Shown: piece by piece, positions 8,840 through 33,176 of the stretch
Layout: each line of letters begins with the position of its first letter
Numbering within the stretch: position 1 is the first letter of the stretch
Sequence record: OR062943.1
Direction: 5' to 3' (one strand)
Source: Escherichia phage 241Ecol014PP
DNA length: 64,000 nt
Translations under genes and position numbers: made by a program
The notes under the pieces: generated by a model
The model's database searches: none
What the model was told of the DNA's origin: nothing
The model's input: only the letters and a program-made list of their open reading frames with translations

Positions 8840-8870
8840 AGCTATCATGATTGTTTAACCTGGAGGCACA

Positions 8871-14321: not shown

Positions 14322-14350
14322 TTGACTATTGTTACAAAATTTGGTAAAAT
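14322..14350 (+). promoter_or_regulatory. sigma70-like promoter TTGACT-N17-TAAAAT with TGn extended -10
   Basis: TTGACT 14322-14327, spacer 17 ending TGG, TAAAAT 14345-14350; upstream of ORF 14384. Confidence 0.5.
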
Positions 14351-14383
14351 ACCTTGTAGAGATTTTCATACCGGAGGAGTGAC

Positions 14384-15885: not shown

Positions 15886-16572
15886 ATGGCAGAGATTAAG
15901 TCGGATGTTAACCACATCCACACTCTGCCAGATTTTGTTCAGGGGGGTCTTGACTACCTACCTGGAGATTTTCTGGCTGAGAAGGTTAATTTAGTCACAT
16001 TCTTAACCGTATACCTTAAAAGGTTGGAGGATGTTGATAAGATGCTGGTAGGTTTGGCTGAAGGAAGATTGCTTAACAATGCCAGCGGAAGATACCTTGA
16101 CGAAGTTGGTAATCAACTTGGTATTCTTAGGAATGGACTTTCAGATGCTGATTTTCGTGCCACACTAATTATTCAGCAGGCCGCAGCATCAAGGGGCGGG
16201 ACTCGCGAAGATGTCATCTCCACCTTGCGACAATTGTTCGGAAGAGACAATTTCGATACGTGGAAAGGAGACAACTTCAGGTTTGACATAAATATTAGAA
16301 AAACTTGCTTTGACATATTGCAGTCTATCGATCAGATCTTAGATATGCTACCATTGCCTTGTCATTTGCGTCTTACAGAATCGCAAGGGCAAGCTTTTGG
16401 TTTTGAAGGGGACTCTACAGCTCTGGGCTTCGGATCAGTGTGGGAAGAAAACCAATTCGGAGTTGGTGGGCTGGCTACTTTGCTGTATGTTCCTGACGTA
16501 AGACCTGATTGGGACACCACAACCATTTATTGTGAAAGTATTACAGTAAACGCAACTAGACAGGAGGGTTAA
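15886..16572 (+). CDS. baseplate/tail protein (possible gpI/DUF2313-like)
   Basis: 228 aa; RBS GGCGGCGAG region; position directly after J-like gene; weak motif similarity only. Confidence 0.3.
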   Translation: MAEIKSDVNHIHTLPDFVQGGLDYLPGDFLAEKVNLVTFLTVYLKRLEDVDKMLVGLAEGRLLNNASGRYLDEVGNQLGILRNGLSDADFRATLIIQQAAASRGGTREDVISTLRQLFGRDNFDTWKGDNFRFDINIRKTCFDILQSIDQILDMLPLPCHLRLTESQGQAFGFEGDSTALGFGSVWEENQFGVGGLATLLYVPDVRPDWDTTTIYCESITVNATRQEG

Positions 16573-18644
16573 TGGCAACAGCTGTTTTTAAACCTTACCG
16601 TGATTACTCTACAATGGCTGCACAGTTTCATTACCGAACAGTTCAGGATACTGCCGTTCCTGGTAGAGATTATAATCATGTTGAGGGCGATGTAACTATC
16701 CCAATTGGGGCAACCAGTATTGAGATCCCCGTGGAAATTGTTGACAAATTACCCAACAGGTTGCCAAGAAGCTTCTTTATGGAGTTTTCATCAAAATCTC
16801 AAGGGGTAATGATTGGAACACAAAGGGCGAAATGTACAATAGTTTCAGATGAGAATCTCGACAGGATATCTTGGGATACTGTTGAGGAGAGAATGTTCCA
16901 CCCAAGATATTGGGTTACAACTACTCAGCAGACTGAAAGTACCTGTATTGTTGCAGATAACAACTGTTGTATTAACCGTTTAGTGTCAAGAACATATGGA
17001 GGTATGGCTGGGTGCATTTGGGAAACAGTTGACAAGTATGACCATTTCGGCATTGGGTTTGATGATCATTATGAGATGAGAAACACCAAGCTATGGTTCA
17101 GAATGTCAATAACCAACGCCAGCAACTTCTCCACTCCTGAAAAGATGATTATGACTGTAGACCTTGTTGATGGCACAATCATCTATGTTCCTTTAGCTCA
17201 ATATGCTGTCAGCATCTCAGAGGATAAGAATGTTGCAGAAATTCATATTGATTTTGAGGACTGCGTCGGGATGGACCAGAACAACAACATGATGGGTGTT
17301 GATCCTCGGCAGGTGAGAAGGATTTTAATACCACTTATGCCTAAAGACTGGGTAAGTAACAGCACAGACCCGAGAACGGAAAACGTAGAGTGTGAGTTGC
17401 GCCTAGATCTGCTTCAGCCAGACACAGGCTGGAAAATGATGCAACTTAATAATATCCAGGTGAAAGAACACGACGTTGGAATCTGCACAGCATATGACGA
17501 TATGTGGAACGTATCCCCTTTAAGGGTGTTGAACAATATCAAACGTCTGGGCTATACCGGAACCATAAACCATTATGTTGGTATGAGTCATTATTATGAC
17601 TACACATGGTCAGGAACCCAATGGTCTATAAACAAAACAGGAGCGCTAAACGCTGCAGCTTATAAATGGCATGATGATTTTATGTACAATGCCAAACGAC
17701 ATAACTTCGACGTTATGCAATCTGTAAGTTTTGAGCTTTTCAGTGATGCCTGCCCGTTGGAATGGACCCAAAGAGACTGGAACGATAACTACGCTAAAAC
17801 AGGGTATACACCTTGTAGTTACCTCCTGTCTCCAACCATTGAAGAGGGTATGAATTTTCTTACTGCAGTATTTAAGAATTTTGCATCAGCCGCTATGAGA
17901 AACAATCTGCCAGTGATTATGCAGGTTGGTGAACCATGGTGGTGGTACAATACCGATACTCGTAGACCTTGTATTTATGATTACCCTACAAAGCAGGCGT
18001 TTTATGATGAGACAGGTGAGTATGCATTAGATATTGGGACTATTGACGATCCTAAAACTGGCGGTGTTTACGATAAGTATGTAGCATTTTGTCGTGGTAA
18101 GCTTGGCGCTCGTATTGCAGCTATTTCAAAGGCAATAAAGGCACACGCTGCATCAGCTCAGATGACAGCTTTGCTGTTTTTCCCAACCATCATGGAAACC
18201 GAGCTTACACAAAAGCTGAACCTTGCTGACCAATATAAAAAGGAAGCAGGTGCTCTTGATTTCTTCTGTACCGAGTGCTACGATTGGGTGATGCAGGGAG
18301 GTATTGAAAAGGCAAAAGAGTCTGTAAACATACCTATCGTTAAGTTAGGCTGGCAACCGTCTGAAATACAATACCTTGCAGGGTTCGTTCCTAGTAAAGA
18401 GCTTGCTCCGGTATATGGCTACGACCCAACTAGGAATTACCAAGAATTTTTATGGAGATGTATTTGCGGAAACATGGCAACTATAGAGTATAGATACCCT
18501 GAGGTAAAACAGTATGTGTGGGCATACCCGCAAGTAATGTCTGACAGCATCACTGTTACCGCTAGAGATTCTACCGTGCTTCATATGGGGCAGGTTGCTC
18601 TGAAAGGGTATGTAGAAGATGTTGTCCCGCCAGACTTCTCATAA
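16572..18644 (+). CDS. structural protein with N-terminal Calx-beta-like domain, possible tail-associated hydrolase
   Basis: 690 aa; N-terminus TAVPGRDYNHVEGDVTIPIGATSIEIPVEIVDK...CTIVSDENLD fits Calx-beta pattern; remainder Trp-rich. Confidence 0.35.
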   Translation: MATAVFKPYRDYSTMAAQFHYRTVQDTAVPGRDYNHVEGDVTIPIGATSIEIPVEIVDKLPNRLPRSFFMEFSSKSQGVMIGTQRAKCTIVSDENLDRISWDTVEERMFHPRYWVTTTQQTESTCIVADNNCCINRLVSRTYGGMAGCIWETVDKYDHFGIGFDDHYEMRNTKLWFRMSITNASNFSTPEKMIMTVDLVDGTIIYVPLAQYAVSISEDKNVAEIHIDFEDCVGMDQNNNMMGVDPRQVRRILIPLMPKDWVSNSTDPRTENVECELRLDLLQPDTGWKMMQLNNIQVKEHDVGICTAYDDMWNVSPLRVLNNIKRLGYTGTINHYVGMSHYYDYTWSGTQWSINKTGALNAAAYKWHDDFMYNAKRHNFDVMQSVSFELFSDACPLEWTQRDWNDNYAKTGYTPCSYLLSPTIEEGMNFLTAVFKNFASAAMRNNLPVIMQVGEPWWWYNTDTRRPCIYDYPTKQAFYDETGEYALDIGTIDDPKTGGVYDKYVAFCRGKLGARIAAISKAIKAHAASAQMTALLFFPTIMETELTQKLNLADQYKKEAGALDFFCTECYDWVMQGGIEKAKESVNIPIVKLGWQPSEIQYLAGFVPSKELAPVYGYDPTRNYQEFLWRCICGNMATIEYRYPEVKQYVWAYPQVMSDSITVTARDSTVLHMGQVALKGYVEDVVPPDFS

Positions 18645-18656
18645 TCAGGAGATAAA

Positions 18657-19697
18657 ATGTCAAAACCTAGTTTTCCATTAGAGATTTGGGCAGAGGAGGA
18701 TCAGGTTCTGCCTAACACCCACAGACAGAACAGGCTACGCCCGATTGATGATTTGTGGAGAAAAGGTTGGGATCTTGGTCAAAAGCCCTCATGTGAAGAA
18801 CTTAACTATATTTTCAATATGCTCGGGACTTGGGCAAAATACATTGCTGACGAGCAGATCCCCGCTCAAGAAGGCCGTTATCTGGTACGTGATAATAACT
18901 TGAGTGATCTTTTGAACATTCCTGTTGCCCGTAGAAACCTTGGGATTATTACTAAGGAAGAGGCAGACGCCAGGTATGTAAAAGTTACAGGTGATACAAT
19001 GACAGGCCCACTGGGTTTGCAACGTATCAACTTTAAAGCTGCCGAGACAGATAAGGCTTGGATAGAGACAACTATTGGCCCAGATAAGACAACTCTCGAC
19101 TTTGGGTTAAGTGATAATATTGGGTCGTTTGATGATGGTGGCACATCTACAATAGATGCGTTTCGTTGGAGATTCCAGCCAACTCAGCCGGATATTAATC
19201 CAGAGTTCACTTTGATGTACCTTAACGCGATCACGGCTAACCGTGCGCTGTTGAAAGTGGTCGGCAATGTTGAAGTTGTCGATAACATGAGGTGCAATAA
19301 CCTTACTATCAGCAATACAGCAACATTCACCAACTGTAATGTGGCTAGTCAGTTGACGGCTGGGTCAGTATATGTTAATGGTGGTGCAAGTTGTGACAGT
19401 ATGGTTGTAAGAAGCCAGCACTGTGTTGTAGGTAACAGAAATGTGGTTCGCTCTGTGAACGGAGTGACGGCTAACGGTAACGGTGATGTAACGATCACTA
19501 TCCCGCAGACGGGTGTGCAAGACATCAGAATCGGTGCAAGACTTGTGGACGGCGTTTCTGAATCTCCAATCCGCAACGGCTACGTTGTCACAGGCTGGCA
19601 TTTCGGTGACAAAAAAGAGATGCGTGGTTCAACTTACTGGGCAGGACCTTTACAAAAACTTGTAAATGGTCAATGGATCACTGTTAATTATGCATAG
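18657..19697 (+). CDS. side tail fibre protein (P2 gpH / lambda Stf-like C-terminus)
   Basis: 346 aa; C-terminus ...GPLQKLVNGQWITVNYA resembles P2 gpH end (...QKYINGTWYNV...) from memory; followed by Tfa-like gene. Confidence 0.65.
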   Translation: MSKPSFPLEIWAEEDQVLPNTHRQNRLRPIDDLWRKGWDLGQKPSCEELNYIFNMLGTWAKYIADEQIPAQEGRYLVRDNNLSDLLNIPVARRNLGIITKEEADARYVKVTGDTMTGPLGLQRINFKAAETDKAWIETTIGPDKTTLDFGLSDNIGSFDDGGTSTIDAFRWRFQPTQPDINPEFTLMYLNAITANRALLKVVGNVEVVDNMRCNNLTISNTATFTNCNVASQLTAGSVYVNGGASCDSMVVRSQHCVVGNRNVVRSVNGVTANGNGDVTITIPQTGVQDIRIGARLVDGVSESPIRNGYVVTGWHFGDKKEMRGSTYWAGPLQKLVNGQWITVNYA

Positions 19698-19711
19698 ATC
19701 GGAGGACTAGC

Positions 19712-20296
19712 ATGAAAATACTTCAAGAGTTTAAACTTTACCAACCGGGATCTGGCGAATACCACGCCAACAAGGAAACCAAAGAGCTGACCCCTCAAGA
19801 GGTCGAGGATTACACCGCATACACTGGGTATTTTTTACGTAATGATGATGGTGATTGGTATGTGCAGTCACGAACATTACGACAAGAAAATCCAGGGTGT
19901 ATCTTCCTACTTGTTGACGAGAAGGGAATTCTTAAGACATCTACAGAAGAACCTGATGCCTTATGGCCTGCTCCAGGTCTTCGTGTGGTTATCGCCAAAA
20001 AAGAAGAGGTACCAGAAAACATTATGCTTCACCACGACGATTTGCGTTTAGTTGGTGATGAATTTGTCACAGACAATGAATTCTTTGTTCAACAGGCAGA
20101 GGGTGTCATAGAGACAGAACTTGCTTGGGCTACTGCTAGAATTGGTGCCTATCAAGACATGATTGACCTTGAATATGATCTTACTGATGACCAGAAACGT
20201 AACATCAGAGATTTGAAAATGTACAGGGTAAAACTTCTTGAAATAGATACATCTAAAGCCCCTGACATTTTCTTCCCGGAGCGACCTACCCTCTAA
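19712..20296 (+). CDS. tail fibre assembly chaperone (Tfa-like)
   Basis: 194 aa; C-terminal ...DLKMYRVKLLEIDTSKAPDIFFPERP resembles Tfa C-terminal motif; downstream of fibre gene. Confidence 0.6.
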   Translation: MKILQEFKLYQPGSGEYHANKETKELTPQEVEDYTAYTGYFLRNDDGDWYVQSRTLRQENPGCIFLLVDEKGILKTSTEEPDALWPAPGLRVVIAKKEEVPENIMLHHDDLRLVGDEFVTDNEFFVQQAEGVIETELAWATARIGAYQDMIDLEYDLTDDQKRNIRDLKMYRVKLLEIDTSKAPDIFFPERPTL

Positions 20297-20307
20297 GAGG
20301 AGGTGTT

Positions 20308-20622
20308 GTGGAGTTGGATTTGGCGGCATTGTACGGTATCTGCATGGGTACCGTTGTCCCGATCTGTGTATGGGCTTTCAACCAGTGGCACACCAAATGG
20401 AAAGGCATTTCCAAGAGGTTGGAAGAGCTGGAGAAAGACCTCATCTTAGTGAAAAACAGTATGGTTACAAAAGATAAACTTGATTCCGTTATAGAGACCC
20501 GGTTAAGCAAGCTAGAGGCCGATATTAACGACCTTAAGCAGGATGTCAGGACAGATGTCTCCGGCATCAGAGCCGATGTACAAAAGATTTTGCACATGCT
20601 CGTAGAGCATAGTAAAAGGTAA
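20308..20622 (+). CDS. small membrane-anchored coiled-coil protein
   Basis: 104 aa; GTG start with RBS GAGGAGG; N-terminal hydrophobic helix LYGICMGTVVPICVWAF then heptad-rich region. Confidence 0.4.
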   Translation: MELDLAALYGICMGTVVPICVWAFNQWHTKWKGISKRLEELEKDLILVKNSMVTKDKLDSVIETRLSKLEADINDLKQDVRTDVSGIRADVQKILHMLVEHSKR

Positions 20623-20632
20623 ACAAAGGTCA

Positions 20633-20664
20633 GAACGGAAAGGACTCCGTTCTTGCATTTTGTT
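20633..20664 (+). terminator. stem-loop GAACGG-N8-CCGTTC followed by T-rich run
   Basis: 6-bp stem, 8-nt loop, then TTGCATTTTGTT. Confidence 0.4.
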
Positions 20665-20681
20665 CCCTAAAGTGTTAAAAT
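20653..20681 (+). promoter_or_regulatory. sigma70-like promoter TTGCAT-N17-TAAAAT
   Basis: TTGCAT 20653-20658, 17-nt spacer, TAAAAT 20676-20681; upstream of ORF 20709. Confidence 0.45.
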
Positions 20682-20708
20682 AGTCCTAAGGAATTTTCTC
20701 AGGAGAAC

Positions 20709-21755
20709 GTGATGACTAAACCAGTTATCCCTCTTGATATTTGGGCCAATCAGGATGTTGTGCTTGAAAATACGGGAGAGTTGAATAAGTCTCAACCAAA
20801 AAAAGAAGAGAGATTGAAAGGTTGGGATATGACACAAAGAGTGGCATGTGAAGTTGTTAACTTTGAACTTCACATGCTTTCTGCGTGGTTAAAGCATTTA
20901 ACAGAAGATGTTGTCCCAGGATGGGATAATAGATTCTTAAGGGTCACTAATAATCTAGCAGACGTTCCAGACAAAGCTGCTGCACGTCAAGTTCTCAATG
21001 TATACTCGCCTGAAGAAATGGACGATCTGTATGTTGACAAGTCTGGAGACATAATGACTCAGACTCAAACTTTAGGCCTTCAAAGAATCGAGTTTGCATC
21101 TGCGTCAACAGACAATGCGGCAATATATACCACCATAACTCCAGACAAGACGACGATGGACTTCTGGATTATGGACAACATCGGTGGTGCTGACGGCACA
21201 GACCTTGATGATCCTTCTCACCAAATAGACGGGTTCCGTTGGAGATTTCAACCTTCTGGTGGGCAGCCTGTGTTTTCGGCTATGAAGCTCAATGCTATAA
21301 CTGCCAACCGTGCAAGACTGGCTATCCAAGGAAATCTTGAATGCAACGATGCAAAAAGTTCCTCTGCAAATGCCAATGCGGTCACGATACCAAGAGCCAC
21401 TGTTAACGGACAACAATCCTGCGGAAGCGCTCAAATAGGTGGAAGAGTTGATTGTAACGATGAAACCGTTAGAGGCCAATATGCAACCGTTGGTGGAAGA
21501 AACGTGGTCCGCAGGGTAAACGGTAACAGCGCAGACGGTAGTGGTAACCTTACTGTCCCTATGCCCAGTAGAGGGGTTGACGATGTAAGGATAGCGAACC
21601 GTTTCAAAACCACCTACAGAGAGTCAAGAGTCTACCCTGGACATGTGATGTGCTCTGGTAACTACGCTTATAAACACCCTTATCAAGGTGATTACTGGAC
21701 AGGTGCTATCCAAAAACTTGTAAACGGTCAATGGATCACTATATCTTATGCTTAA
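20709..21755 (+). CDS. second side tail fibre protein (gpH/Stf-like), paralog of 18657-19697
   Basis: 348 aa; N-terminus PLDIWANQDVVLEN and C-terminus TGAIQKLVNGQWITISYA parallel ORF 18657; central region diverged. Confidence 0.65.
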   Translation: MMTKPVIPLDIWANQDVVLENTGELNKSQPKKEERLKGWDMTQRVACEVVNFELHMLSAWLKHLTEDVVPGWDNRFLRVTNNLADVPDKAAARQVLNVYSPEEMDDLYVDKSGDIMTQTQTLGLQRIEFASASTDNAAIYTTITPDKTTMDFWIMDNIGGADGTDLDDPSHQIDGFRWRFQPSGGQPVFSAMKLNAITANRARLAIQGNLECNDAKSSSANANAVTIPRATVNGQQSCGSAQIGGRVDCNDETVRGQYATVGGRNVVRRVNGNSADGSGNLTVPMPSRGVDDVRIANRFKTTYRESRVYPGHVMCSGNYAYKHPYQGDYWTGAIQKLVNGQWITISYA

Positions 21756-21766
21756 AAAGAGGGTAA

Positions 21767-22033
21767 ATGAAACTAACTCAGTTTTTATGGGGACTGGTTG
21801 CGGCATCTGATGACCCTACGAAAGTATCCCAATCTAAGCTATGGTCGAACATAGGCATGGCGGTGATGACTGGGGTGTTTATTCATATGGGGTATAATGA
21901 TACGCTTCCTGAATGGTATGCGTGGATATATGCACCTTCAGTAGCCTGCCCCCAGCTTATTAGCAAATTCATCTCGCTCCGGTGGGGTTGCCAGCACCCT
22001 GACCACGTTAAAAACGAAGAGCAAAAAGCTTAA
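21767..22033 (+). CDS. small hydrophobic protein, function unknown
   Basis: 88 aa; two hydrophobic segments. Confidence 0.35.
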   Translation: MKLTQFLWGLVAASDDPTKVSQSKLWSNIGMAVMTGVFIHMGYNDTLPEWYAWIYAPSVACPQLISKFISLRWGCQHPDHVKNEEQKA

Positions 22034-22042
22034 GGAGAAATC

Positions 22043-23788
22043 ATGGCGCAAGACATGACAAGCTTCGAGCAGGCGGTAGATCAAGTAATTGTTGATTCTG
22101 AACGTTTGCACTTGATTGTCAACGGTAACGCTGTGGATGAAGTTGTCGTAGAGGATGGGACCACTATCCCTACGGTACGAAAAGCCATGCTTGACACCCT
22201 TTATTTTAAAACGCCACCAATCCCTTGGGCGTATGGTGCATCCACAACAGTTTTTAACCAGTTGTATGAGTTTAAAGGGGATACAGGCACTCAGTGGTGG
22301 TACGCCCCAGCAGCATCAAAATCTAACCCGGTTAGAATGCCAGCAGATCCTTCACAATCTCCAAACTGGAGATTATACACCGACTCTGCAGTAATGGCAA
22401 AATACTACGCAAAACTTAACAGCCCAAGGTTCGAAGGTGACCCGCGAGTACCTACACCTCCAATGGACGATAAGTCAGAGTCCATAGCAAACACAGAGTT
22501 TGTTGTTGACTATGTTGATAGCATATTTAAAGCCATGGAGGGGATGAAAGTTACTGTAGGATCTTTGGTGGTAAAAGGTCTTACAGAACTCGCTAACACT
22601 ATAGTTGGTGGCACCCTTACCTTACATGGACCTGTTAATGGGGCAGATTCTACTGCACGCTTTAGGAATCTAATCCTCACGGCAAATACTTCTACACTTA
22701 CTTTTGCGTGGAGCGATCCTAAGCATGCAGACTGGAGAAGTACAGAGCTGCAACCTCATGAAGTGTCCACCCACAGGGTTATAGCTGACACTATAACTTC
22801 TGGGAAACCAGTGGCTAATAATAACGATGTGCATTTTGATGGTCTGGGTAATAACTTTTTTGACTACGTGTACATTCGTGGTAATGCCATGAAGGCAGCA
22901 ACCGAGCCGACATTGCAGGTCGATGGGACCGCCAGGGTTAAGAACCTTGAGGTGACAGGCACCGTTACAGGGATAACATACTCTGTCGATGGCACCATGA
23001 TCTACCCTAGCTATATTGAAAGCACGGGTGATGCATTGATAAATGGCGATTTGGAGGTTGGCGGATCTGTAGTTATTCGAGGTACAGCCTCTATCCAAAA
23101 CATAGCTCTGAATACCCTAAGAGTCAATGAGCGTGCAACTTTTGAAGGGGAAGGACTTACAGCCAACAAAGGTGTAATTACCGAGCTGACAACCACTACT
23201 TTAACTGCAACAACTGCAAACTCTGAAAACTGCAACGTTACCAGAAACTTGCAGGTAAATGGAGATGTTAGTTTAAACGCAGCAGGGACGGGCACCACCT
23301 ACCTTCACAACCTTGAAATATCCGGCACAGTGACTGGGTGGCTGCCAGACTTCTCTAATGTCAACTTTGTTTGTAATGGCATTAACTCCAGTGGCAAGAT
23401 AACCACCTCTCAAGAAATTGAGGCGGGTAAAACCATTACTGCCCCTACTTTCCACGCAGGAAAGGTAGATTTTGATTTAGAGGAGGTTGACGCGTCCAGT
23501 GGGACATGGACACCTAACGGGCAGGCCAGTATGTATGTTGTCCACGCGAAAGGGGATTTTACAATAGGACAATGGCCTGGGACATCAGCGGAAGATAAAC
23601 CTTATCCATTCACTGCAGTTATCTATGTCATTCAGGATGCTGTAGGTCACAACGTGACTTTGCACGATAAGTATGCTATCCTGTCGGCAACACCTGTTAT
23701 TAACAACAAGGCTAACAGTGTTACCTTGCTGCAATTAACGTATTGTGGTGTTGGTGATATTGTAGACGTAGTAATTGCACAACGTTAA
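22043..23788 (+). CDS. tail fibre/structural protein
   Basis: 581 aa; RBS AAGGAG; Thr/Asn/Gly-rich repetitive beta-like sequence typical of fibre shafts. Confidence 0.4.
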   Translation: MAQDMTSFEQAVDQVIVDSERLHLIVNGNAVDEVVVEDGTTIPTVRKAMLDTLYFKTPPIPWAYGASTTVFNQLYEFKGDTGTQWWYAPAASKSNPVRMPADPSQSPNWRLYTDSAVMAKYYAKLNSPRFEGDPRVPTPPMDDKSESIANTEFVVDYVDSIFKAMEGMKVTVGSLVVKGLTELANTIVGGTLTLHGPVNGADSTARFRNLILTANTSTLTFAWSDPKHADWRSTELQPHEVSTHRVIADTITSGKPVANNNDVHFDGLGNNFFDYVYIRGNAMKAATEPTLQVDGTARVKNLEVTGTVTGITYSVDGTMIYPSYIESTGDALINGDLEVGGSVVIRGTASIQNIALNTLRVNERATFEGEGLTANKGVITELTTTTLTATTANSENCNVTRNLQVNGDVSLNAAGTGTTYLHNLEISGTVTGWLPDFSNVNFVCNGINSSGKITTSQEIEAGKTITAPTFHAGKVDFDLEEVDASSGTWTPNGQASMYVVHAKGDFTIGQWPGTSAEDKPYPFTAVIYVIQDAVGHNVTLHDKYAILSATPVINNKANSVTLLQLTYCGVGDIVDVVIAQR

Positions 23789-23836: not shown

Positions 23837-26800
23837 ATGCTTCCAATCCCTTTGCTAAAACTTGGTCGTCATTTCCTCGATAAGAGGGGTGGAATTAAGG
23901 AACTTGCTGTTCTGTCATACCCAATAGACAACAGTGATGGTACAAGCAACACAGTATCCTATGTAAATAGCTTAGCTATACTTTTTGATGATGGTCAGCT
24001 TAATATTACTGGCTATAATAGGTTCGGAGAGTGTCGGACTGGAGATCTTGATACAATAAACTATCCTAATGAGGCTGCCTGGAACGTTGATCATGTGTGG
24101 AGAGCAGACCGTGCGTTTGTGATCCGAACTTTTGATAACCAGTTTTTCTACATCGGCTGCACTGCAGGGCTTATTGGGTCTGATGCTGCAGGCGGTAATG
24201 ATGTTTGTGTAAGAGAGTGGACACCTCTTCCTGAACAGATCGTTAAAGGGTTGCACCTTGACACCCACCCAGAGCGCCTTATTGAGGTGATGGGTGGTAT
24301 TAACAACACTGTCTGGGTTATTGCAGAGGCAGAAGGCACTGGCATACTTAACCTGTATGGATCTGGTAACAACACCTACGGATCTTTGCATGTAGATAAA
24401 AACCAGCATGCAACCCCTGTAAAGATTGGTGAGACATCGGAAAATCCTGAAACAGGCCCTTGGAAAAACCCAAGCATCAACTGTGAGGTGCATGACAACT
24501 CTGTTATTTTCGGTGGTCCTAGGGGTTTCTGGATTGCTGGATACGACTTTCTAAGAAATAACAGTAGAAACGACCTTGTTTGGCCTCCTGTGCAGATTAC
24601 TCGTAACGATTTGAGAGGCATTCCTGCAGATGAGGAGTGGAAAGGGTTTATGTGCGGTCCTAACGGGGCAATAATTGCCACACAGAGGATGCACACACCT
24701 AATGACCAGCAGCTTGTTAACGTATTCTACGGGCAAGACGTTTGGGGAGATGACACATGGCGTTCCTTAAATATCACCTACACCCATGAGGTGATAATGG
24801 CTCGTGGATACGGCACAAGTGGCATTTTCTTCAATAATGGCACTAAACAGTATCGTGGATTCTCTCGCAACTTGTGTAATGATATTGGTGCACAATCTGC
24901 AAACAATAGCCCTAGGGCTAATTTTATCCACTATCAGGCTCTTGCTACAGCTAAATATGTTGAGCAACGCCTGCCAGTTAGCTGGACAGAGAGTGTTTAT
25001 TTCCAAGGCATCCACAGGGAAGGTTTCTTAGGAACCTTTACTGTTGTTAATGGCAAACTTTGGTGGTCAGGCATCCCAAGGGGAAGTTTTGCAGGCTCTA
25101 ACAACCTGTTTGGCGGCAGACTTAATAGCCAGGGGTTCACAGAGGTTCCTGAGAATTGGTATAAAAATGTCCCGGTAGATAGTTGGGGTGTTGATGATAT
25201 TTTCGACGTTAACGGTGTTAGCAGCGTTAGCAATATTTACATTGGTGACACGGTCAAGATGAAATTGAAGCCTCAGCCAGAGGGGGCTACGTTCATTATT
25301 GACAAGATTGAACTGGTAAATGCTGCAGGCACGGTTGTTACAGATGCAAATTACCAATTCTCCACCAACTGGAACCACGGCGGGGCCAACGAAGTTGTTG
25401 TTACCCAATATAACAGAAATGTTAACAGACGTGGACTGTACTCTGTAAAAATAACCTATCATGACAAACATGGCACAGGCAGAACCCACACAACAAGGAC
25501 TTTGAACTGGAACACTATCGTCCCAGCGTACCCGTCTGATGGTAAATGGCATACTGTCGGTAGAAACAAACAGTTCCATGTTAATGATACTGTATACTTT
25601 GGGCTGAATGCGGCTCAGCCTGCAGTAGAAGGGGATACATCGTATATGGTCAGACTCCACAGAATGGATGCTGGATCAGTAACTTATGATGTTACCCAAG
25701 AGATTTATAATCAGCGACGAAATACCTATGATAACTTGGTGCAGACACAGGCCTTATGGGAGTTCAACCCAAACGGCAGAGGTGGTAAAATGTTGCAGGT
25801 CAATGAACAAAACGGGACATCGTTGACTGTCCATGAACATCCAAATCCTTGGCCTGATCCTGGAAAACCTAACTCTGGTGCTCGTACACTGAAAATTGTT
25901 AGCCATGATGCAGGATATTTCGGAATACGCTGGGAAGCCACAGTAAGATATGCCGACGGGACAACAAACAATATAGGGATCACCCTTGGTGGCACTAGTG
26001 AGGATAACTCACTGAAAATTGCCTACACCCCTAGAGGCATCTCTATTGACAATATGGATGTTGTTCGCAACGGTTACGGCGATGTGAATGTCAAAGTTAC
26101 TCTTGGCGAACATCTTGGTGGGGAAAGGATCATCATGTATGCCTTTGATCATGATCCGCGCACCAATGGGACTTATGCAAATCAGGCATGGAGTTATCTG
26201 ATAAATGCACCTGAGCCGAATACTAAAGAGTTCTACTACGGTATGAAGCGAGATGTGTGCAAGAAAACAGGAACACATGACTGGATTGCTATCTGCGTTA
26301 AAGATGAGCGCACAGCTTGGGATGAGCCTGTTAACAGATGGTTCATAGGTATTCCTACCAGAAGTGATAAGTATGTCGCAGAATATATTGTATGCATGGG
26401 CGGTACCAACCTAAACATGTGTTGGAACGAAGATGTAAACAAATACTCTGATTATGACTATATGAGGGATTACTCTTGTAATTTGTGGTTTAACCAAACT
26501 ACAGGTTACCCTCCGCGTCAGGCAAGGGTAAATCCTGCAATCTTTACAGATACGCAGGTTTTCTTGACAAAACAGGCCAACGAGGTCCAGACCTTCAAGA
26601 ACAAATACGACCCTAATAAGTGGTTCTATAACTGCTATGGGGCATTTTTCTGGGGACCTGGAGAATTACCTGGTGGTGGCTCTTGTTTTGAGGCTGCAAC
26701 TTACGCCAGTGACAGATTTATGGGCCAGGTCAAGAAATACAAGATAATTCCAGGGCCTGAAACTTTAGGCAACGCTGTCGACCCCTATATCATCATGAGT

Positions 26801-29473
26801 GATCTAAGATCGAACATGGATGGAACATCCATATCTATGCAAGTTCCGGTAACAAACGGATACAAGCGTGTTGTGATGATCATTAAGTGCGATCTGATAG
26901 GTAAGCAAGTTCTTGCAGAGAACGGAACTTCCACCCACCTATTTGAGACTGCTCTGCACTATCAGTTTGCTGATTCACCTTTTGCAGGGGATAAGAGAAT
27001 ATCTGACACAGACGCTGTGCGATGCAAGAAATTTATGCTAGGTGGTGGGTGGTGGTGGTATGAATTTGACTTAACAGACAAATTCACCGACACGTCTAAA
27101 GTAGTGACGGGGCTTCGTCTAGACCTTGGCGAAAACATGCACAAAAGTGTTTGTGATGGCACCTACGGTGACCCAACAATCTACTTAAAGTATGTCTCTT
27201 TTGAGCACCCAGAGGATGTTGTTTATGGTCCAAAACTGAGACTGTTTGGCAATTGGATTGCTAAAGACAGGGTAGGTATGGGCAAGAAGGTAAGAGGCTT
27301 CTTAATGGATGCCGGTACAGAGGACATGCTAGTCAATGCAGTGTGGCCTGAATTACCTGGGACTCAGTGGAACAACTCAGCCAAATCTATAAACTGGTTC
27401 AATATCCACAGGGCTATGTGGACAACCAACTGTTACCTGTGGAAAGAGCTGAATGACGGCGCTTTCGGGTTCACAGGCGGCAGAAGAATGGCAATCATTT
27501 GCTGGACAACGTTGCAAAGATGTTATGACCATGACTACGAGATTGGAGGTAGGGCATGGAAAAATATTAGGGATAGAATCATAACCAACTTTGCAGATCC
27601 TAACGGTGGTGGAGCGTATGGCTTCGACTGCAGCAGGCTCATCCATTTGAACGGATCCTCTGCCTACAAGAAAGAAGGTTACTCTGGGTCTATGATAGAA
27701 TGGGGCCTGGTGAAAGATGCTCGCGTGCTGATGGGTCAACAACTTGCTGCTGCAATAGGTCCTAATGCAGTGCAATCTGTTAAACCTGCGTGGTTTGATA
27801 TCCCATTGTGGTCATCCGGTACACCAGGAACTGCTGCAATCAACCCTACCACGGGGGATCTGGAAATCTCTTGGGAGGACTTGAAGCAGGTTGGAGGCTG
27901 GGATAAAACAGGGTATCAGGTCCAGTGGTGGAGGGCTGATGGATCTTTAGCCGCTGATGAGTTTGTTAAGGACAATTTCTACACCATGTCCTCTGCAAAA
28001 GCACAGCAATTATTTGGTCAGGCCACTCCGTCAACGATCACCATGTCTATGTGCTGTAAAGACAACAGGACTGGAGCTTTGGGGCCAAGGGTTGCTAAGG
28101 TTTTCTCAGGTATTAAATGGAATCTCCCTGTTCAAAGTGTTTCATGGAAGCAAATAGGTGATAACAAGCTGCTGGTTACCCCTGCCTGTCAGTTCAACGC
28201 AACTCTTAACGTTGATCCTGCTGTTGCGGCAAACTCAGCTAAAGCTTCTGACTTCTCTGTGTCTAACACTGCTATGGCAGATGTGAGGAAGATTGACACA
28301 CTGAACGCCAGAATTACCTGTAAAAACACTTATGGCACATTCCAAATCATCAACAACTTCACAGATGCTGATTCTAAGGTAGTAAGGACAGCAAGCCAGA
28401 CTCTGAGTTTAGGGACTCTAGCCTATGCGGCCATGATCACCGAACAGTCGGCAACACTCCAAGGAGGCGGTGTAGGCAAGTCCATTGCAACACCTGTGTG
28501 GAAGCCGAATGAGTGGGTTGTGTTTGATTTGACTGTGGACTTCTCCAGTGATAATAACTGGACATGGGTAAGGAATTGTTTGTCACAGTTGATGGGCGGT
28601 CCAAGCTCCATTAGCGATAGTCACGACTCTACTGACCCGAGCGTGTTCCAGGTGGGTAAAACTCACCCAGAGACTGGAGAAACGTTGCCTGACAGGAAGT
28701 ATGCTTTGGTTTGCATCTCTTACGGGAAGGCAGATGTCACCTTCTCAGGGACACACACTTATAACGGAACCTACAACTTCTCAAGGAAGTATAGTCTCAA
28801 AGCAGGGAACATTGTAGACGAGGTTGGTGTGCTGTATAATCCAGGTAACGGCATAGGGATTGTGGGTGGTAAACTGCAGATGCAGGAACCTTCTATTACC
28901 CCTTCCAACGTATCCGGTATTAGAAAGACTTGGGAAAGTAGTAATACCAACATTGCAACAGTGGATGCTGCCACAGGGCTGGTAACATTTAAAGCTACTG
29001 GGAATGTCACCATAAAGTTTGTAGTTACTGATGATGCAGGGCGCAAAACGTCTTCAACATCTTTTACTGTCAAACAGATGGCACCACAGTGGAGAATGTG
29101 GATAGGTACAGCAACAAACGGGGCATACCCTAATCCGGCAGGTACTTCTGGTATGAAGACTTTCTCTACAAGCAAACCGATGGAGTACGGCAGCGGTCCT
29201 AAGGTAGGGCAGATGGTGTACTTTGGTGCGTATATTCCTGAAATTATAGGGCTTCCTAGAAGTCAGCTTCAGTTGCTGTTTGGGGCTGGTGTTGACGATC
29301 TTGCCACTTTCGGGTATAGCGACAACATCGAGGCTGCAAGGAGTTCAGGATGGGTAGGGTTCAGAATGGAGTCTGGAAAGGAAGGCAGGATTCTAGGGAC
29401 AGCCTCTATAGGTGTTATGTTCCCTGGTGACCAGCAGTATCGTCTAGAAGCCTACGCAACCTTTTCTCGTTAA
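23837..29473 (+). CDS. giant adhesin/tail fibre-like protein with C-terminal bacterial Ig-like (Big_2-like) domain
   Basis: 1878 aa; RBS GGAG; segment SGIRKTWESSNTNIATVDAATGLVTFKATGNVTIKFVVTDDAGRKTSSTSFTV fits Big_2 pattern. Confidence 0.5.
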   Translation: MLPIPLLKLGRHFLDKRGGIKELAVLSYPIDNSDGTSNTVSYVNSLAILFDDGQLNITGYNRFGECRTGDLDTINYPNEAAWNVDHVWRADRAFVIRTFDNQFFYIGCTAGLIGSDAAGGNDVCVREWTPLPEQIVKGLHLDTHPERLIEVMGGINNTVWVIAEAEGTGILNLYGSGNNTYGSLHVDKNQHATPVKIGETSENPETGPWKNPSINCEVHDNSVIFGGPRGFWIAGYDFLRNNSRNDLVWPPVQITRNDLRGIPADEEWKGFMCGPNGAIIATQRMHTPNDQQLVNVFYGQDVWGDDTWRSLNITYTHEVIMARGYGTSGIFFNNGTKQYRGFSRNLCNDIGAQSANNSPRANFIHYQALATAKYVEQRLPVSWTESVYFQGIHREGFLGTFTVVNGKLWWSGIPRGSFAGSNNLFGGRLNSQGFTEVPENWYKNVPVDSWGVDDIFDVNGVSSVSNIYIGDTVKMKLKPQPEGATFIIDKIELVNAAGTVVTDANYQFSTNWNHGGANEVVVTQYNRNVNRRGLYSVKITYHDKHGTGRTHTTRTLNWNTIVPAYPSDGKWHTVGRNKQFHVNDTVYFGLNAAQPAVEGDTSYMVRLHRMDAGSVTYDVTQEIYNQRRNTYDNLVQTQALWEFNPNGRGGKMLQVNEQNGTSLTVHEHPNPWPDPGKPNSGARTLKIVSHDAGYFGIRWEATVRYADGTTNNIGITLGGTSEDNSLKIAYTPRGISIDNMDVVRNGYGDVNVKVTLGEHLGGERIIMYAFDHDPRTNGTYANQAWSYLINAPEPNTKEFYYGMKRDVCKKTGTHDWIAICVKDERTAWDEPVNRWFIGIPTRSDKYVAEYIVCMGGTNLNMCWNEDVNKYSDYDYMRDYSCNLWFNQTTGYPPRQARVNPAIFTDTQVFLTKQANEVQTFKNKYDPNKWFYNCYGAFFWGPGELPGGGSCFEAATYASDRFMGQVKKYKIIPGPETLGNAVDPYIIMSDLRSNMDGTSISMQVPVTNGYKRVVMIIKCDLIGKQVLAENGTSTHLFETALHYQFADSPFAGDKRISDTDAVRCKKFMLGGGWWWYEFDLTDKFTDTSKVVTGLRLDLGENMHKSVCDGTYGDPTIYLKYVSFEHPEDVVYGPKLRLFGNWIAKDRVGMGKKVRGFLMDAGTEDMLVNAVWPELPGTQWNNSAKSINWFNIHRAMWTTNCYLWKELNDGAFGFTGGRRMAIICWTTLQRCYDHDYEIGGRAWKNIRDRIITNFADPNGGGAYGFDCSRLIHLNGSSAYKKEGYSGSMIEWGLVKDARVLMGQQLAAAIGPNAVQSVKPAWFDIPLWSSGTPGTAAINPTTGDLEISWEDLKQVGGWDKTGYQVQWWRADGSLAADEFVKDNFYTMSSAKAQQLFGQATPSTITMSMCCKDNRTGALGPRVAKVFSGIKWNLPVQSVSWKQIGDNKLLVTPACQFNATLNVDPAVAANSAKASDFSVSNTAMADVRKIDTLNARITCKNTYGTFQIINNFTDADSKVVRTASQTLSLGTLAYAAMITEQSATLQGGGVGKSIATPVWKPNEWVVFDLTVDFSSDNNWTWVRNCLSQLMGGPSSISDSHDSTDPSVFQVGKTHPETGETLPDRKYALVCISYGKADVTFSGTHTYNGTYNFSRKYSLKAGNIVDEVGVLYNPGNGIGIVGGKLQMQEPSITPSNVSGIRKTWESSNTNIATVDAATGLVTFKATGNVTIKFVVTDDAGRKTSSTSFTVKQMAPQWRMWIGTATNGAYPNPAGTSGMKTFSTSKPMEYGSGPKVGQMVYFGAYIPEIIGLPRSQLQLLFGAGVDDLATFGYSDNIEAARSSGWVGFRMESGKEGRILGTASIGVMFPGDQQYRLEAYATFSR

Positions 29474-29482
29474 CAAGGGGGT

Positions 29483-29518
29483 AAATAAAAAAGGGGCCGT
29501 TTGGCCCCTTTCTTTTTA
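29483..29518. terminator. bidirectional rho-independent terminator between converging transcription units
   Basis: AAATAAAAAAGGGGCC-gttt-GGCCCCTTTCTTTTTAT: A tract, 8-bp stem, T tract; + gene ends 29473, - gene ends 29522. Confidence 0.75.
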
Positions 29519-29521
29519 TAG

Positions 29522-29722
29522 TTAGTAATACTCCCAACATGCCCCATCTTCAGACGGCTTGACGCGCTTACCTTTATGGTCAACATAGGTATAGCCACAA
29601 CCTTCACAAATAACAGGTGCTGCATAGCCTTCCTTCCACTGATCCTCAGTGATCAGACCTTCCAAATCTTTGCAGTCAAAGCCAAACAACTCTTCAGAAC
29701 AGTCTTTACAAAAATCAGCCAT
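29522..29722 (-). CDS. small zinc-ribbon-like protein
   Basis: 66 aa; Cys pairs CKDC ... CEGCGY. Confidence 0.45.
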   Translation of the reverse strand: MADFCKDCSEELFGFDCKDLEGLITEDQWKEGYAAPVICEGCGYTYVDHKGKRVKPSEDGACWEYY

Positions 29723-29791
29723 CTCTATCAGTCTCCATATTTAACCAATCTATATTACATATTGCCGAAGAAACAGTATTTCATTTCATCA

Positions 29792-30010
29792 TCACAGATC
29801 TCCAACAACTTCCCAAATACCCCAGTGAGCATCTATATCCTTGATAAAGTATCTTTCTCCACGGTTTGTCCACACACCTATCCCAACTTTACCATCTATC
29901 CCATTGTATACATCTGCCTCATACTCTTTGCCCGGTGTAAAGTGTACACCCATCATAAGGGCTGTTATTCCATTAGGATTTTTAAATTTAACAAATTTTA
30001 CTTTGCTCAT
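29792..30010 (-). CDS. hypothetical protein
   Basis: 72 aa ORF in co-oriented leftward operon. Confidence 0.4.
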   Translation of the reverse strand: MSKVKFVKFKNPNGITALMMGVHFTPGKEYEADVYNGIDGKVGIGVWTNRGERYFIKDIDAHWGIWEVVGDL

Positions 30011-30011
30011 A

Positions 30012-30341
30012 TTACTTAATCCTTGCAGTTACAGTAGCGCTATACCCCATGTAGTTATGAGACATAAAGAATGTAAGCCCTTTAAGTTCAGGATTCTTTC
30101 TAAGAAATCGTTTCAATTTTCGAATGCAATTAACACCATGATCATAGTTTGAGAAATTAAATTTAATACCCTGCTCCATCATAGTGCACACTTCTTCATG
30201 GGTATGCCATTGTCTATCGTGGTCACAAAACCAGTAACCAATACCTTCTTTTTCTTGGATATGCAATCCCCAAAATACTTTATGCATTGGATATTTTGGT
30301 TTTCTACCATGATAATGTAGTTTAATATTCACATGTGCCAT
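30012..30341 (-). CDS. hypothetical protein
   Basis: 109 aa; His/Cys-containing; RBS GGAG upstream on minus strand. Confidence 0.45.
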   Translation of the reverse strand: MAHVNIKLHYHGRKPKYPMHKVFWGLHIQEKEGIGYWFCDHDRQWHTHEEVCTMMEQGIKFNFSNYDHGVNCIRKLKRFLRKNPELKGLTFFMSHNYMGYSATVTARIK

Positions 30342-30377
30342 TTTTTTTTGTTACTCCGTTCTGTATCTGTGATAATG

Positions 30378-30407
30378 AGAATAGCAAACTGGGGTGTGTG
30401 CTGTCAA
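30378..30407 (-). promoter_or_regulatory. possible internal promoter TTGACA-N18-TATTCT (minus strand)
   Basis: Reverse complement of 30402-30407 is TTGACA; -10-like TATTCT at 30378-30383. Confidence 0.25.
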
Positions 30408-30512
30408 CAACATTTTTAAGCGTTTTGGGGAAGTTTTTTGAAAGGTGGGTGTAATCACAAGAGAGGGTGGAGTTATTGAAGGCACAGGCCTCTTTTGAGG
30501 CCTTAAAATCGA

Positions 30513-30893
30513 TTATGACACTTTGACGTAGCGCTCTGACAGAGCTGGAAAGCCAAAAGCAGTACCTATACTACCGTATGCTACCCACCATTGAAGTTCA
30601 TCGTGACACCATTTTCCGATCAGGAAGGTGCTGGGGTAGCGGGTCAGTATTTTGGCATAAGCTTTAGGGTCTGCATCTTCTGGGATAATGATACTTGGAA
30701 CATCTTTGTTATGGCCACAGCAGCAGTTTAGAGTTTTCAATCCTGCCGCCCATAGACTCATGATAGGCTTAGCCATGCACTTATCAAGGCACACACGTTT
30801 TTTGCCGTCACGGAGCTTTTTAGGCACATCAACGATAACATTTTGATGCTTGGCACCTTTCACTTTCCAATTATAGGATTTACACTTGCACAT
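30513..30893 (-). CDS. cysteine-rich protein, probable metal-binding, function unknown
   Basis: 126 aa; CKCK, CLDKC, NCCCGH, WCHDE motifs. Confidence 0.45.
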   Translation of the reverse strand: MCKCKSYNWKVKGAKHQNVIVDVPKKLRDGKKRVCLDKCMAKPIMSLWAAGLKTLNCCCGHNKDVPSIIIPEDADPKAYAKILTRYPSTFLIGKWCHDELQWWVAYGSIGTAFGFPALSERYVKVS

Positions 30894-30923
30894 TTAATCA
30901 GTCTCCATCTAGAAAGTAATACT

Positions 30924-31094
30924 TTACTTAAAATCTTTGTCACCTATTACGATTGCACGAATCCACTCATTGTGATGTTCAATGGCGGTAAGGTGTAACA
31001 TAATGCAGTGATTGTCATTACCAAACACGGTGCGGTAAGCTTTAGCAGCACCATGATATAACTTCCACATCAGGTAATGATATCTTCGCCTCAT
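30924..31094 (-). CDS. possible small ORF (56 aa) below ORF-track threshold
   Basis: ATG with GGAG 8 nt upstream on minus strand, fills gap between 30893 and 31100; hand-translated, not verified. Confidence 0.25.
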   Translation of the reverse strand: MRRRYHYLMWKLYHGAAKAYRTVFGNDNHCIMLHLTAIEHHNEWIRAIVIGDKDFK

Positions 31095-31099
31095 GGCTC

Positions 31100-31564: not shown

Positions 31565-31566
31565 AT

Positions 31567-31842
31567 TCACACCTTCTCGTTGATAAATTTACGGGCGGTT
31601 TGGTGAGTTGTTTCTGCTGTCTTCAGAATGATATTAATTTTATTGTCAAGATCATTCATCTCTGCAGTTAATTCAGGAATCTCTCCGGCATGCATAGTGA
31701 AATCATACATAGACATTCCCAGAATCTCATTGATGCGGCGGTTGCATTCTGCAGCACGCTGGTTCATTTTCCAAGCTAACACCAAAGCCTCCTGCGTAGC
31801 CTCTAGTGCAAAATCTAATACGTCGGCCTCTTCTTTCGTCAT
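31567..31842 (-). CDS. hypothetical protein
   Basis: 91 aa, helical/charged. Confidence 0.4.
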   Translation of the reverse strand: MTKEEADVLDFALEATQEALVLAWKMNQRAAECNRRINEILGMSMYDFTMHAGEIPELTAEMNDLDNKINIILKTAETTHQTARKFINEKV

Positions 31843-31899
31843 GTCAGTCTCTCCTGTTGTATTGTTGGTAGGTGTATGAATACCTTATAACTCACCTTT

Positions 31900-32466: not shown

Positions 32467-32468
32467 GA

Positions 32469-33160: not shown

Positions 33161-33176
33161 GGCTCTCTCCTTTTTG

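Follow-up and report, generated by a model that had tools for sequence, protein, structure and literature searches.

Gene content and order of the locus

The window, i.e. the whole 64,000-nt stretch of DNA analysed here (Escherichia phage 241Ecol014PP, sequence record OR062943.1), derives from an rV5-like Vequintavirus and was 98-99% identical in nucleotide sequence to the phages Alma, naswa and rV5. Two ORFs, previously proposed as tail fibre genes from the letters alone (hereafter the sequence-only reading), were found at 18657-19697 and 20709/20712-21755 and are orthologous to rV5 gp33 and gp30, respectively. The locus carries the following features.

18657-19697, + strand: short tail fibre copy 1, orthologue of rV5 gp33, 346 aa (nucleotide identity, rV5/Bas48 annotation, phrog_4465)
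19712-20296, + strand: Tfa, tail fibre assembly chaperone, orthologue of rV5 gp32, 194 aa (PF02413, phrog_136)
20308-20622, + strand: gp31, 104 aa; N-terminal transmembrane segment, coiled coil (phrog_5345, unknown function)
20632-20682, + strand: intergenic hairpin (20632-20653), then a promoter-like element (putative late promoter P030 of rV5)
20712-21755, + strand: short tail fibre copy 2, orthologue of rV5 gp30, 347 aa (phrog_4465, 44% identity to copy 1)
21767-22033, + strand: 88-aa membrane protein, rV5 gp29 (phrog_1322)

Compared with rV5 and Bas48 CarlMeissner, the locus showed 98.4-98.5% nucleotide identity and the same gene order and lengths (346, 194 and 347 aa). The gp33, gp32 and gp30 genes of the window, whose equivalents in Bas48 are bas48_0035, bas48_0036 and bas48_0038, are thus the same genes, and the differences are strain-level substitutions alone. 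The order gp34-gp33-gp32(Tfa)-gp31-gp30-gp29-gp28 was identical in rV5, Bas48 and the window, and was also found in the diverged lineages L008, L011, L017-L020, L024 and L026. As called mechanically, the gp30 ORF begins with a GTG codon at 20709. The true start is likely the ATG at 20712, because a ribosome-binding site (AGGAG) lies at 20701-20705 and a 1044-nt ORF is found in all annotated relatives.

Only the ORF at 19712-20296 matched the family PF02413 (Caudo_TAP; E = 7.5e-12, residues 121-192), and its product, gp32, also matched phrog_136 and was 31% identical to phi92 gp148. A Caudo_TAP gene therefore lies directly downstream of copy 1 and not of copy 2, which is followed by the gene for the 88-aa membrane protein. 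These results bear out the sequence-only reading in placing a Tfa-like gene after the first fibre only and a small hydrophobic ORF after the second. A tblastn search located one Tfa place per Vequintavirus record among the records listed (overall, 245 places in 243 records). In Mu, the N-terminal domain of Tfa binds the fibre tip, the C-terminal domain trimerises, and the protein remains in the virion (PMC9608196).

The product of the next gene, gp31, is annotated in rV5 as "membrane protein, 1 TMD". It was 31-32% identical to 104-aa ORFs at the same position in SalP219 and KB57, and its gene is kept directly 3′ of the Tfa gene in Seunavirus and Mydovirus relatives. In phi92, gp149 occupies the same place and has a gp31-like build, without detectable sequence similarity. 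The gp31 gene was always found directly 3′ of the Tfa gene, and gp31 is a candidate for a fibre-specific partner.

The hairpin upstream of gp30 is terminator-like. The promoter-like element 5′ of gp30 is composed of TTGCAT (20653-20658), a 17-nt spacer and TGnTAAAAT (20673-20681), and corresponds to the putative P030. Among three diverged lineages, the hairpin stem varies by compensatory substitutions, and no change was seen in TTGCATTTT and TGYTAAAATA. The window holds more copies of the motif TGGTAAAATA than expected (17 matches vs 5.7).

Downstream of gp30, gp29 was 53% identical to an 89-aa ORF of SalP219, 51% identical to an ORF of KB57 and 35% identical to phi92 gp144. We rejected gp29 as a fibre-specific partner; its homologues adjoin other fibre genes or wedge genes in single-fibre phages. 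Because it is also present in one-fibre relatives, gp29 is regarded as a backbone gene and not as the partner of gp30.

Paralogy and domain architecture of the two fibres

The two fibres, gp33 and gp30, are true, old paralogues with the same architecture. BLASTP aligned them over their full length (44% identity, 59% positives, 356 columns, E = 1e-96), and both matched phrog_4465 end to end, gp33 with an E value of about 1e-172 (1e-172 to 9e-172; residues 1-346 on profile positions 1-342) and gp30 with 5e-166. This pairwise alignment overrides the objection that the two proteins might be similar in low-complexity stretches only, and the duplication of tail fibre genes seen by the sequence-only reading is real. 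No family was matched when both fibres were scanned against Pfam and NCBIfam. The paralogy was already described by Kropinski et al. (2013; PMC3606486), with 42.3% identity, together with Tfa and the late promoter P030 (their Table S4), and Maffei et al. (2021) described two paralogous short tail fibres and a chaperone homologous to Mu gpS/gpU. The gp33/gp30 pair with its shared gp32 is an already known feature, real but ordinary.

Identity between the paralogues in 30-aa windows was 50% in the first 30 aa and 53-70% in the centre (aa 106-197). The weakest windows were at aa 46-105 (27-37%), aa 198-248 (30-37%) and aa 279-323 (20-37%), and the last 30 aa again reached 57%. The best-conserved part is thus the centre (approximately aa 106-200), contrary to the earlier description of conserved ends and diverged centres. 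The shared C-terminal segment (QKLVNGQWIT..YA) that was part of this description is real: the last 63 nt of the two genes are 81-83% identical, compared with about 49% for the whole gene. Recombination junctions in the flanking DNA had been suggested as a check; neither these nor extended flanking homology were found beyond the gp33 and gp30 coding regions.

The approximate domains of gp33 are a wedge-docking domain (aa 1-78), a Mu-gpS-like shaft and a gpH/gpS-like tip (aa 286-346, nt 19512-19694). The architecture of gp30 is the same, with the tip at aa 287-347 (nt 21570-21752). The profile matches of gp33 in the PDB included 9cuy, 5yvq and 9zd7. The family profile matched the phiTE short tail fibre (9cuy) in the N-terminal residues 1-78 (E = 1.8e-27) and in the C-terminal region (E = 4.6e-8). 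It also matched Mu gpS (5yvq; E = 2.4e-11), with the tip stretch 279-350 on residues 438-503. As a single sequence, copy 1 matched 5yvq (E = 1.7e-6), whereas copy 2 alone did not. Foldseek with the AF2 model of gp33 returned Mu gpS (5yvq) as the sole significant fold match (E = 2.2e-7); this monomer model was poor (pLDDT 61, pTM 0.33, 26-sequence alignment), and the domain borders were not taken from it. Twelve docking residues are invariant and common to both paralogues (P4, P7, W11, A12, L18, N25, P29, G37, D39, E47, N50 and W59).

By hhalign, the last ~93 aa of P2 gpH aligned with the family tip (probability 96%, E = 2e-9), and no similarity was found between the fibres and lambda Stf (orf-314 part; probability 0.07, E = 0.69). 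The label "gpH/Stf-like" is therefore half right: the tip is gpH/gpS-like, but the likeness to Stf is absent. Nor are these side tail fibres, since they begin with a homologue of the phiTE wedge-docking domain and their phi92 homologue gp147 is located under the wedge.

Several known systems share parts of this module. In phi92, gp147, gp148 and gp149 stand in the common module order of wedge, baseplate protein, short fibre, Tfa and small TM/coiled-coil protein. The fibre gp147 is a full-length homologue (27% identity to copy 1 and 24% to copy 2), and its tip is of the copy-1 type. The phi92-like phages differ in having one such fibre, with a different coiled-coil-like shaft, and in the placement of gp144, the gp29 homologue, elsewhere in the locus. 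Mu gpS is homologous in the shaft repeats and the C-terminal tip, and its Caudo_TAP-type chaperone gene (gpU) lies directly downstream, but the N-terminal docking domain of the fibres studied here is of the phiTE/Vequintavirinae type. The end of P2 gpH aligns with the fibres, including the ...IQKxINGxWY... strand, and a Tfa gene (gpG) lies downstream, while the remainder of its 669 aa is unrelated to gp33 and gp30. The phiTE fibre (9cuy) has a homologous wedge-docking joint and C-terminal strand region; it is a 554-aa fibre with coiled coil and Ig-like domains, and its phage, which infects Pectobacterium, is flagellotropic. T4 gp12 is a functional analogue, being a trimer on the baseplate that attaches irreversibly to the LPS core, but its chaperone is gp57A and not Tfa. 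An HHpred similarity to T4 gp12 (1PDI) was reported previously (Kropinski 2013; PMC3606486). It was not reproduced in our PDB searches at E ≤ 1, where no T4 gp12 chain was among the matches of either protein or of the family profile.

Conservation of the pair and evolution of the tips

Both gp33 and gp30 were present in all of the ~115 Vequintavirus records, and the locus is nearly invariant. The dN/dS ratios (0.016 for gp33 and 0.039 for gp30) indicate strong purifying selection on both genes, with copy 2 evolving faster than copy 1. Allelic variation in either paralogue was not found by Maffei et al. As a new observation, gp30 stands where relatives carry a gene for a 157-aa membrane protein. 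Neighbor-joining trees, which were built on a simple distance and depended on sampling, are compatible with a duplication within Vequintavirus or with an older one: they gave 65% for the monophyly of copies 1 and 2 in one sampling and 8% in the other, where copy 1 grouped with Seunavirus at 87%.

The phi92-like phages (Justusliebigvirus/Phapecoctavirus) have one short tail fibre each, and its tip shared 59-61% identity with the tip of copy 1, compared with 34% for the tip of copy 2. The best match of the gp30 tip among phages outside Vequintavirus was 42%, and no donor was found among the phages searched. Against 1.84 billion representative proteins, the matches of the gp30 tip were confined to its own cluster, that of gp33 and copy 2 of a sister lineage (lineage C, see below). 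Within 115 genomes, the gp30 tip shows 94-100% conservation. The gp33 gene is the conservative one and, by synteny, the positionally ancestral one; it has kept an ancestral tip, whereas the gp30 tip appears only in Vequintavirus; this, too, is a new observation.

In the lineage of the window, the gp33 and gp30 tips share just 43% identity. They differ mainly in aa 286-330, a stretch in which the same-codon fraction is 0.00 and there is no gene conversion. In the terminal 16 codons, the same codon is used at 82% of the identical residues, compared with ~33% elsewhere (Fisher p = 0.0045, last 20 aa). The last 14 residues of the two proteins are nearly identical, and three silent substitutions are correlated between the two genes of a given genome.

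Lineage C is a sister metagenomic lineage. Its copies are 91-95% identical in the tip (L017, L024 and L026) vs 43-45% in the body, and the trees of tip and body are incongruent (100% bootstrap). The tips of lineage C are thus homogenised by gene conversion, which is a further new observation. The body (aa 1-285, docking domain included) is 43-45% identical between copies in every two-copy lineage, and the tip is diverged between copies in L008 as well as in the window. A chaperone common to both fibres would keep their extreme C-termini almost the same and could promote conversion between the tips. We tentatively suggest, as a scenario with less than an even chance, that the shared chaperone locks the tips within reach of inter-paralogue conversion. 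The tips of lineage C would be continually homogenised in this way, while the gp30 tip of the rV5 lineage would have escaped except for its last ~10 codons and gained a new, lineage-specific receptor surface. The result may be a virion with two terminal-receptor specificities for LPS core variants.

Probable role of the two fibres in adsorption

In phi92, gp147 was identified by cryo-EM as fibre III, located under the baseplate wedge, and was proposed as the irreversible binder (PMC13450770). The short tail fibre of phiTE points downward and binds wedge protein 1. A cryo-EM structure of an rV5-like baseplate was not found in the literature. The main text of Kropinski 2013 (PMC3606486) reports gp30, gp32 and gp33 in virions, but none of the three is listed in a mass spectrometry table of 19 proteins from the same source, and 0 of 11 of their predicted tryptic peptides searched for were present in it.

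The region is the short-tail-fibre locus of an rV5-like Vequintavirus. The explanation that we consider probable is that two wedge-mounted homotrimers served by one Tfa carry out irreversible adsorption to the LPS core, copy 2 probably recognising another or variant core epitope. Each of gp33 and gp30 would form a homotrimer, the folding of which would begin at the C-terminus and be aided by the single Tfa, gp32, as in Mu gpS/gpU. Both fibres would be mounted on the baseplate wedge and point down, equivalent to fibre III of phi92, and both may carry out the irreversible step of adsorption, at the outer core of the LPS. The most likely ligand of copy 1 is the first glucose of the outer core (GlcI), a sugar used by phi92-like phages too. 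In this lineage, copy 2 would probably bind a different or variant core epitope, so that more core types could trigger contraction. The idea of two alternative receptors for gp33 and gp30 was already raised by Kropinski et al. (2013). The terminal receptor on K-12 does not differ between two-fibre phages and those with one fibre (phi92-like). Infection was wholly abolished in waaG mutants (Maffei 2021), and therefore no independent second receptor is visible on K-12.

The same receptor genetics would also be expected if both fibres bound GlcI and had sub-functionalised by position. They would then occupy non-equivalent docking sites or differ in shaft geometry, forming two rings or alternating sets that serve avidity and triggering, not a wider receptor range. 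The lack of allelic variation in either paralogue (Maffei et al.) is consistent with this alternative, as is a body of constant divergence combined with a tip that is free to diverge or to be nearly identical. Since the tips of lineage C are nearly the same in both copies, the universally kept difference is the body with its docking part and not the tip, which fits "two positions" better than "two receptors". However, the tips in the window differ strongly in a stretch without gene conversion, and the conservation of the divergent gp30 tip throughout the 115 genomes suggests that a distinct surface is selected for. The invariant docking residues, being shared by both paralogues, also argue for the same kind of docking site. 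We regard division by position as rather unlikely.

In the sequence-only reading, a host-range cassette had been duplicated, so that one or the other of two gpH/Stf-type side tail fibres would be used. The presence of a Tfa gene and of two fibre genes encoding gpH-like tips does recall such systems, and Mu S/U vs S′/U′ is a precedent (PDB 8ju3, also matched in our profile search). In Mu, however, inversion of the G segment swaps two fibre/chaperone pairs, each with its own Tfa, while the genes here have a fixed orientation and one Tfa. Inverted repeats were not found on either side of the genes: the longest pair of arms measured 19 nt, had 79% complementarity and bore no relation to the gene borders. 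No invertase was seen among the ORFs examined at 14.4-29.5 kb, all of which match structural or small membrane proteins. Both fibre genes are on the + strand, in late units. There is thus no switchable or invertible cassette of the Mu G segment or P1 C segment type at this locus. The duplication is old (49% nucleotide identity), fixed in the ~115 records and under purifying selection, which does not suit a mobile element, and the N-terminus is a baseplate-wedge docking domain instead of a side-fibre attachment. This reading is largely refuted, and we consider it very improbable. Even less credible is the co-assembly of the paralogues into heterotrimers nucleated by the shared Tfa at their near-identical C-termini. 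The co-varying codons there and the similar tips of lineage C would agree with co-assembly, but shafts of ~44% identity with several indels are hard to fit into a regular trimeric shaft, the terminator-like hairpin and promoter-like element appear to separate the two genes, and the solved relatives are all homotrimers.

The feature is thus a rediscovered, annotated one, and the comparative results leave current understanding unchanged. Among coliphages with a broad host range, the rV5-like phages are some of the most often isolated, and they are candidates for use in therapy and biocontrol. The locus bears on the identity of the protein that contacts the LPS core irreversibly and on why this genus has two fibres where phi92-like phages have one. 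The conservative gp33 tip, the Vequintavirus-specific gp30 tip and the gene conversion of tips in the sister lineage provide handles for experiments on these questions.

Organization of the short tail fibre locus

Over the 5 kb around the fibre genes, the window matched more than 100 rV5-like phages (Vequintavirus), the best-matching of which, including rV5 itself, were 98.3-99.0% identical in nucleotide sequence. Gene names were taken from the annotated rV5 and Bas48 records.

Features of the fibre locus in the window (rV5 gene names)
18657-19697: gp33 (copy 1), annotated as 'tail fiber' or, in Bas48, 'short tail fiber protein'
19712-20296: gp32 (Tfa), annotated as tail fibre assembly protein
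20308-20622: gp31, no name in the annotated records
20632-20682: hairpin and promoter-like element in the gp31-gp30 spacer, corresponding to rV5 late promoter P030
20712-21755: gp30 (copy 2), annotated as a second 'short tail fiber protein'
21767-22033: gp29, annotated as membrane protein
22043-23788: gp28, no name in the annotated records
23837-29473: gp27, no name in the annotated records

Much of this is known. Kropinski et al. (2013; PMC3606486) reported that gp30 and gp33 of rV5 are 42.3% identical, compared them to T4 gp12, raised the possibility that they recognize two LPS chemotypes, and listed P030 upstream of gp30 (Table S4). Maffei et al. found that phi92-like phages and Phapecoctavirus have just one fibre copy, and saw no allelic variation of the fibres (PMC8594841). 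In a 2026 cryo-EM study, the phi92 orthologue gp147 ('fibre III') forms six trimers below the wedge protein gp145, with a proposed role in irreversible binding (PMC13450770). Since these papers already describe the fibres, our finding of paired fibres is a rediscovery. The main text of PMC3606486 states that virion proteomics detected gp30, gp32 and gp33. Contrary to this, all three are absent from its MS table (Additional file 5; 19 proteins), and none of 11 predicted tryptic peptides searched was found in that file.

The spacer hairpin showed compensatory stem substitutions across lineages, and the element that follows it (TTGCAT-17-TGnTAAAAT) was invariant in three diverged lineages. The late-promoter-like motif TGGTAAAATA occurred 17 times in the window with at most one mismatch (e.g. 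8831-8840, 14342-14351 and 20673-20682), against 5.7 expected from shuffles, and its exact copies were intergenic and upstream of structural genes. The gp33-gp32-gp31 and gp30-gp27 groups appear to be separate late units.

Upstream, the rV5 gp34 orthologue (16572-18644) carries Calx-beta domains and N4-gp65-like NCTSP N-terminal and TIM-barrel domains. It is a deacetylase-type fibre, a kind now associated with the NGR glycan as receptor, and in Vequintavirus it is an insertion that separates the baseplate gene from the short fibre gene. Downstream, negative GC skew at about 29-37 kb (29000-37000) suggests a minus-strand gene block, which fits the annotated minus-strand gp26-gp19 of rV5. About 16-21 GenBank records (MG0656xx) named 'Campylobacter phage', with C. 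jejuni as host, share about 98% identity with rV5-like coliphages (matches to 18000-23000); this host label looks doubtful.

Homology and origin of the two fibres

The sequence-only reading had proposed duplicated fibres with conserved ends, diverged centres and a single Tfa. The duplication was borne out: the two proteins aligned over their full length (44% identity, E 1e-96) and both matched PHROG 4465 end to end, so the homology is real and not limited to the ends. The proposed distribution of similarity was not: sliding-window identity was highest in the centre (aa 106-197, 53-70%), with troughs of 20-37% at aa 46-105, 198-248 and 279-323, and only the last ~16 residues were strikingly similar. 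The genes were about 49% identical at the DNA level and their flanks revealed neither homology nor recombination junctions, indicating an old duplication. Only one PF02413 gene, the Tfa, was present, and each Vequintavirus record listed likewise had one place (245 places in 243 records overall). The gene 3' of the second fibre does encode a small hydrophobic membrane protein (gp29, 88 aa).

By tblastn, about 115 Vequintavirus records had two fibre places per genome, and the other genera listed had one. In Seunavirus (SalP219, 4MG) and Mydovirus (KB57), the gene order is wedge, baseplate protein, fibre, Tfa, 104-aa protein, 157-aa polytopic membrane protein, ~89-aa membrane protein and gp28-like fibre. 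The 104-aa and ~89-aa genes are homologues of gp31 and gp29, and gp30 occupies the exact site of the 157-aa gene (PF26221, Phage_phiTE_239), which has no homologue in the window.

Positions of the 157-aa PF26221 gene in relatives' loci
L004: 5997-6470
L006: 5846-6319
L025: 5958-6431

The phi92 order is gp147-gp148-gp149, and because its gp29 homologue (gp144, 35% identical) precedes the wedge gene, gp29 is part of the backbone and not a partner of gp30. All relatives keep gp29 in their fibre locus. The protein has two stretches predicted to be hydrophobic, its C-terminus is charged, and its size and topology are holin-like. The 104-aa gp31, directly 3' of Tfa in Vequintavirus, Seunavirus and Mydovirus, combines a TM segment at its N-terminus with a coiled coil and could be a membrane-anchored assembly factor; phi92 gp149 shares this architecture and position, but sequence similarity was not detected.

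Copy 1 was equally close to single-copy Seunavirus fibres (46-51% identity) and to copy 2 (45%), and copy 2 had a long branch in the NJ tree. Both copies were under purifying selection (dN/dS 0.016 for copy 1, 0.039 for copy 2), with more replacements in copy 2 (78% identity to the metagenomic relative L008, against 87% for copy 1).

Fibre tips: divergence and gene conversion

The copy-1 tip (aa 287-343) was 59-61% identical to the single-fibre tips of Justusliebigvirus and Phapecoctavirus, and 57-59% to tips from 52-kb Salmonella myoviruses. For the copy-2 tip, no relatives above 42% identity were found outside Vequintavirus, and its sole matches among 1.84 billion representative proteins were to itself, the gp33 cluster and a single further paralogue cluster. 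In the window's lineage, the fibre tips have diverged.

Metagenomic relatives sharing the two-copy locus sorted into the rV5 lineage, L008 and a sister lineage termed lineage C (L011, L017-L020, L024 and L026). Within genomes, the bodies (aa 1-285) of the two copies were 43-45% identical in all lineages, and the tips 43% identical in the window and L008 versus 91-95% in lineage C.

Lineage-C fibre pairs compared
L017: 1427-2467 and 3501-4565
L024: 1913-2953 and 4001-5065
L026: 1921-2961 and 4001-5056

In simple NJ trees with bootstrap, bodies sorted by paralogue (all copy 1, 100%; lineage-C copies together, 0%), and lineage-C tips grouped together at 100%. Several tip substitutions co-varied between copies within sub-lineages, and DNA tracts at aa 301-315 (L026) and 301-330 (L017) showed 93-100% identity and 92-100% same-codon use. 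The tip pattern in lineage C reflects recurrent gene conversion between the paralogues. In the window this signature covers only the last ~10-16 codons (19652-19681 versus 21710-21739): same-codon use was 0.82 in the last ~16 codons and about 0.33 in the remainder (Fisher test on the last 20 aa, p 0.0045). Three synonymous changes also co-varied with L008. This comparative observation of gene conversion between fibre tips is new.

Fibre anatomy and the role of two copies

A family profile of 26 members matched two regions of the short tail fibre of phiTE (PDB 9cuy), namely the wedge-docking joint at the N-terminus (residues 1-78, E 1.8e-27) and the C-terminus. The match to Mu gpS (5yvq) covered shaft and tip (E 2.4e-11). 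The repeated motif NLaDv..aAR.NLg was shared with another short tail fibre (9zd7). P2 gpH had only its last ~93 residues in common with the family (hhalign probability 96%), and lambda Stf nothing. The AF2 monomer model was poor (pLDDT 61), and the sole significant fold match of this low-confidence model was the Mu fibre-chaperone complex. In Mu, the variable Tfa N-domain binds the fibre tip, the conserved C-domain trimerises, and Tfa stays on the virion (PMC9608196). In a comparison of the window with lineage C, Tfa was one of the most diverged genes (47%), chiefly in the fibre-binding N-domain.

The best-supported reading is of two co-encoded short tail fibres that would be mounted on the baseplate and matured by one Tfa; every mechanistic step that goes beyond homology is extrapolated from Mu, phiTE and phi92. 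By analogy, the ancestral-type copy-1 tip would most likely bind GlcI, the first outer-core glucose of LPS. A switchable host-range cassette, pseudogenisation and heterotrimers of the two were each judged unlikely. As the part that always differs between the copies is the body with its docking part, the main rival explanation is positional sub-functionalisation of two fibres with the same receptor, and the nearly identical lineage-C tips favour it. The lineage-C result weakens different receptors as a universal reason for keeping two copies.
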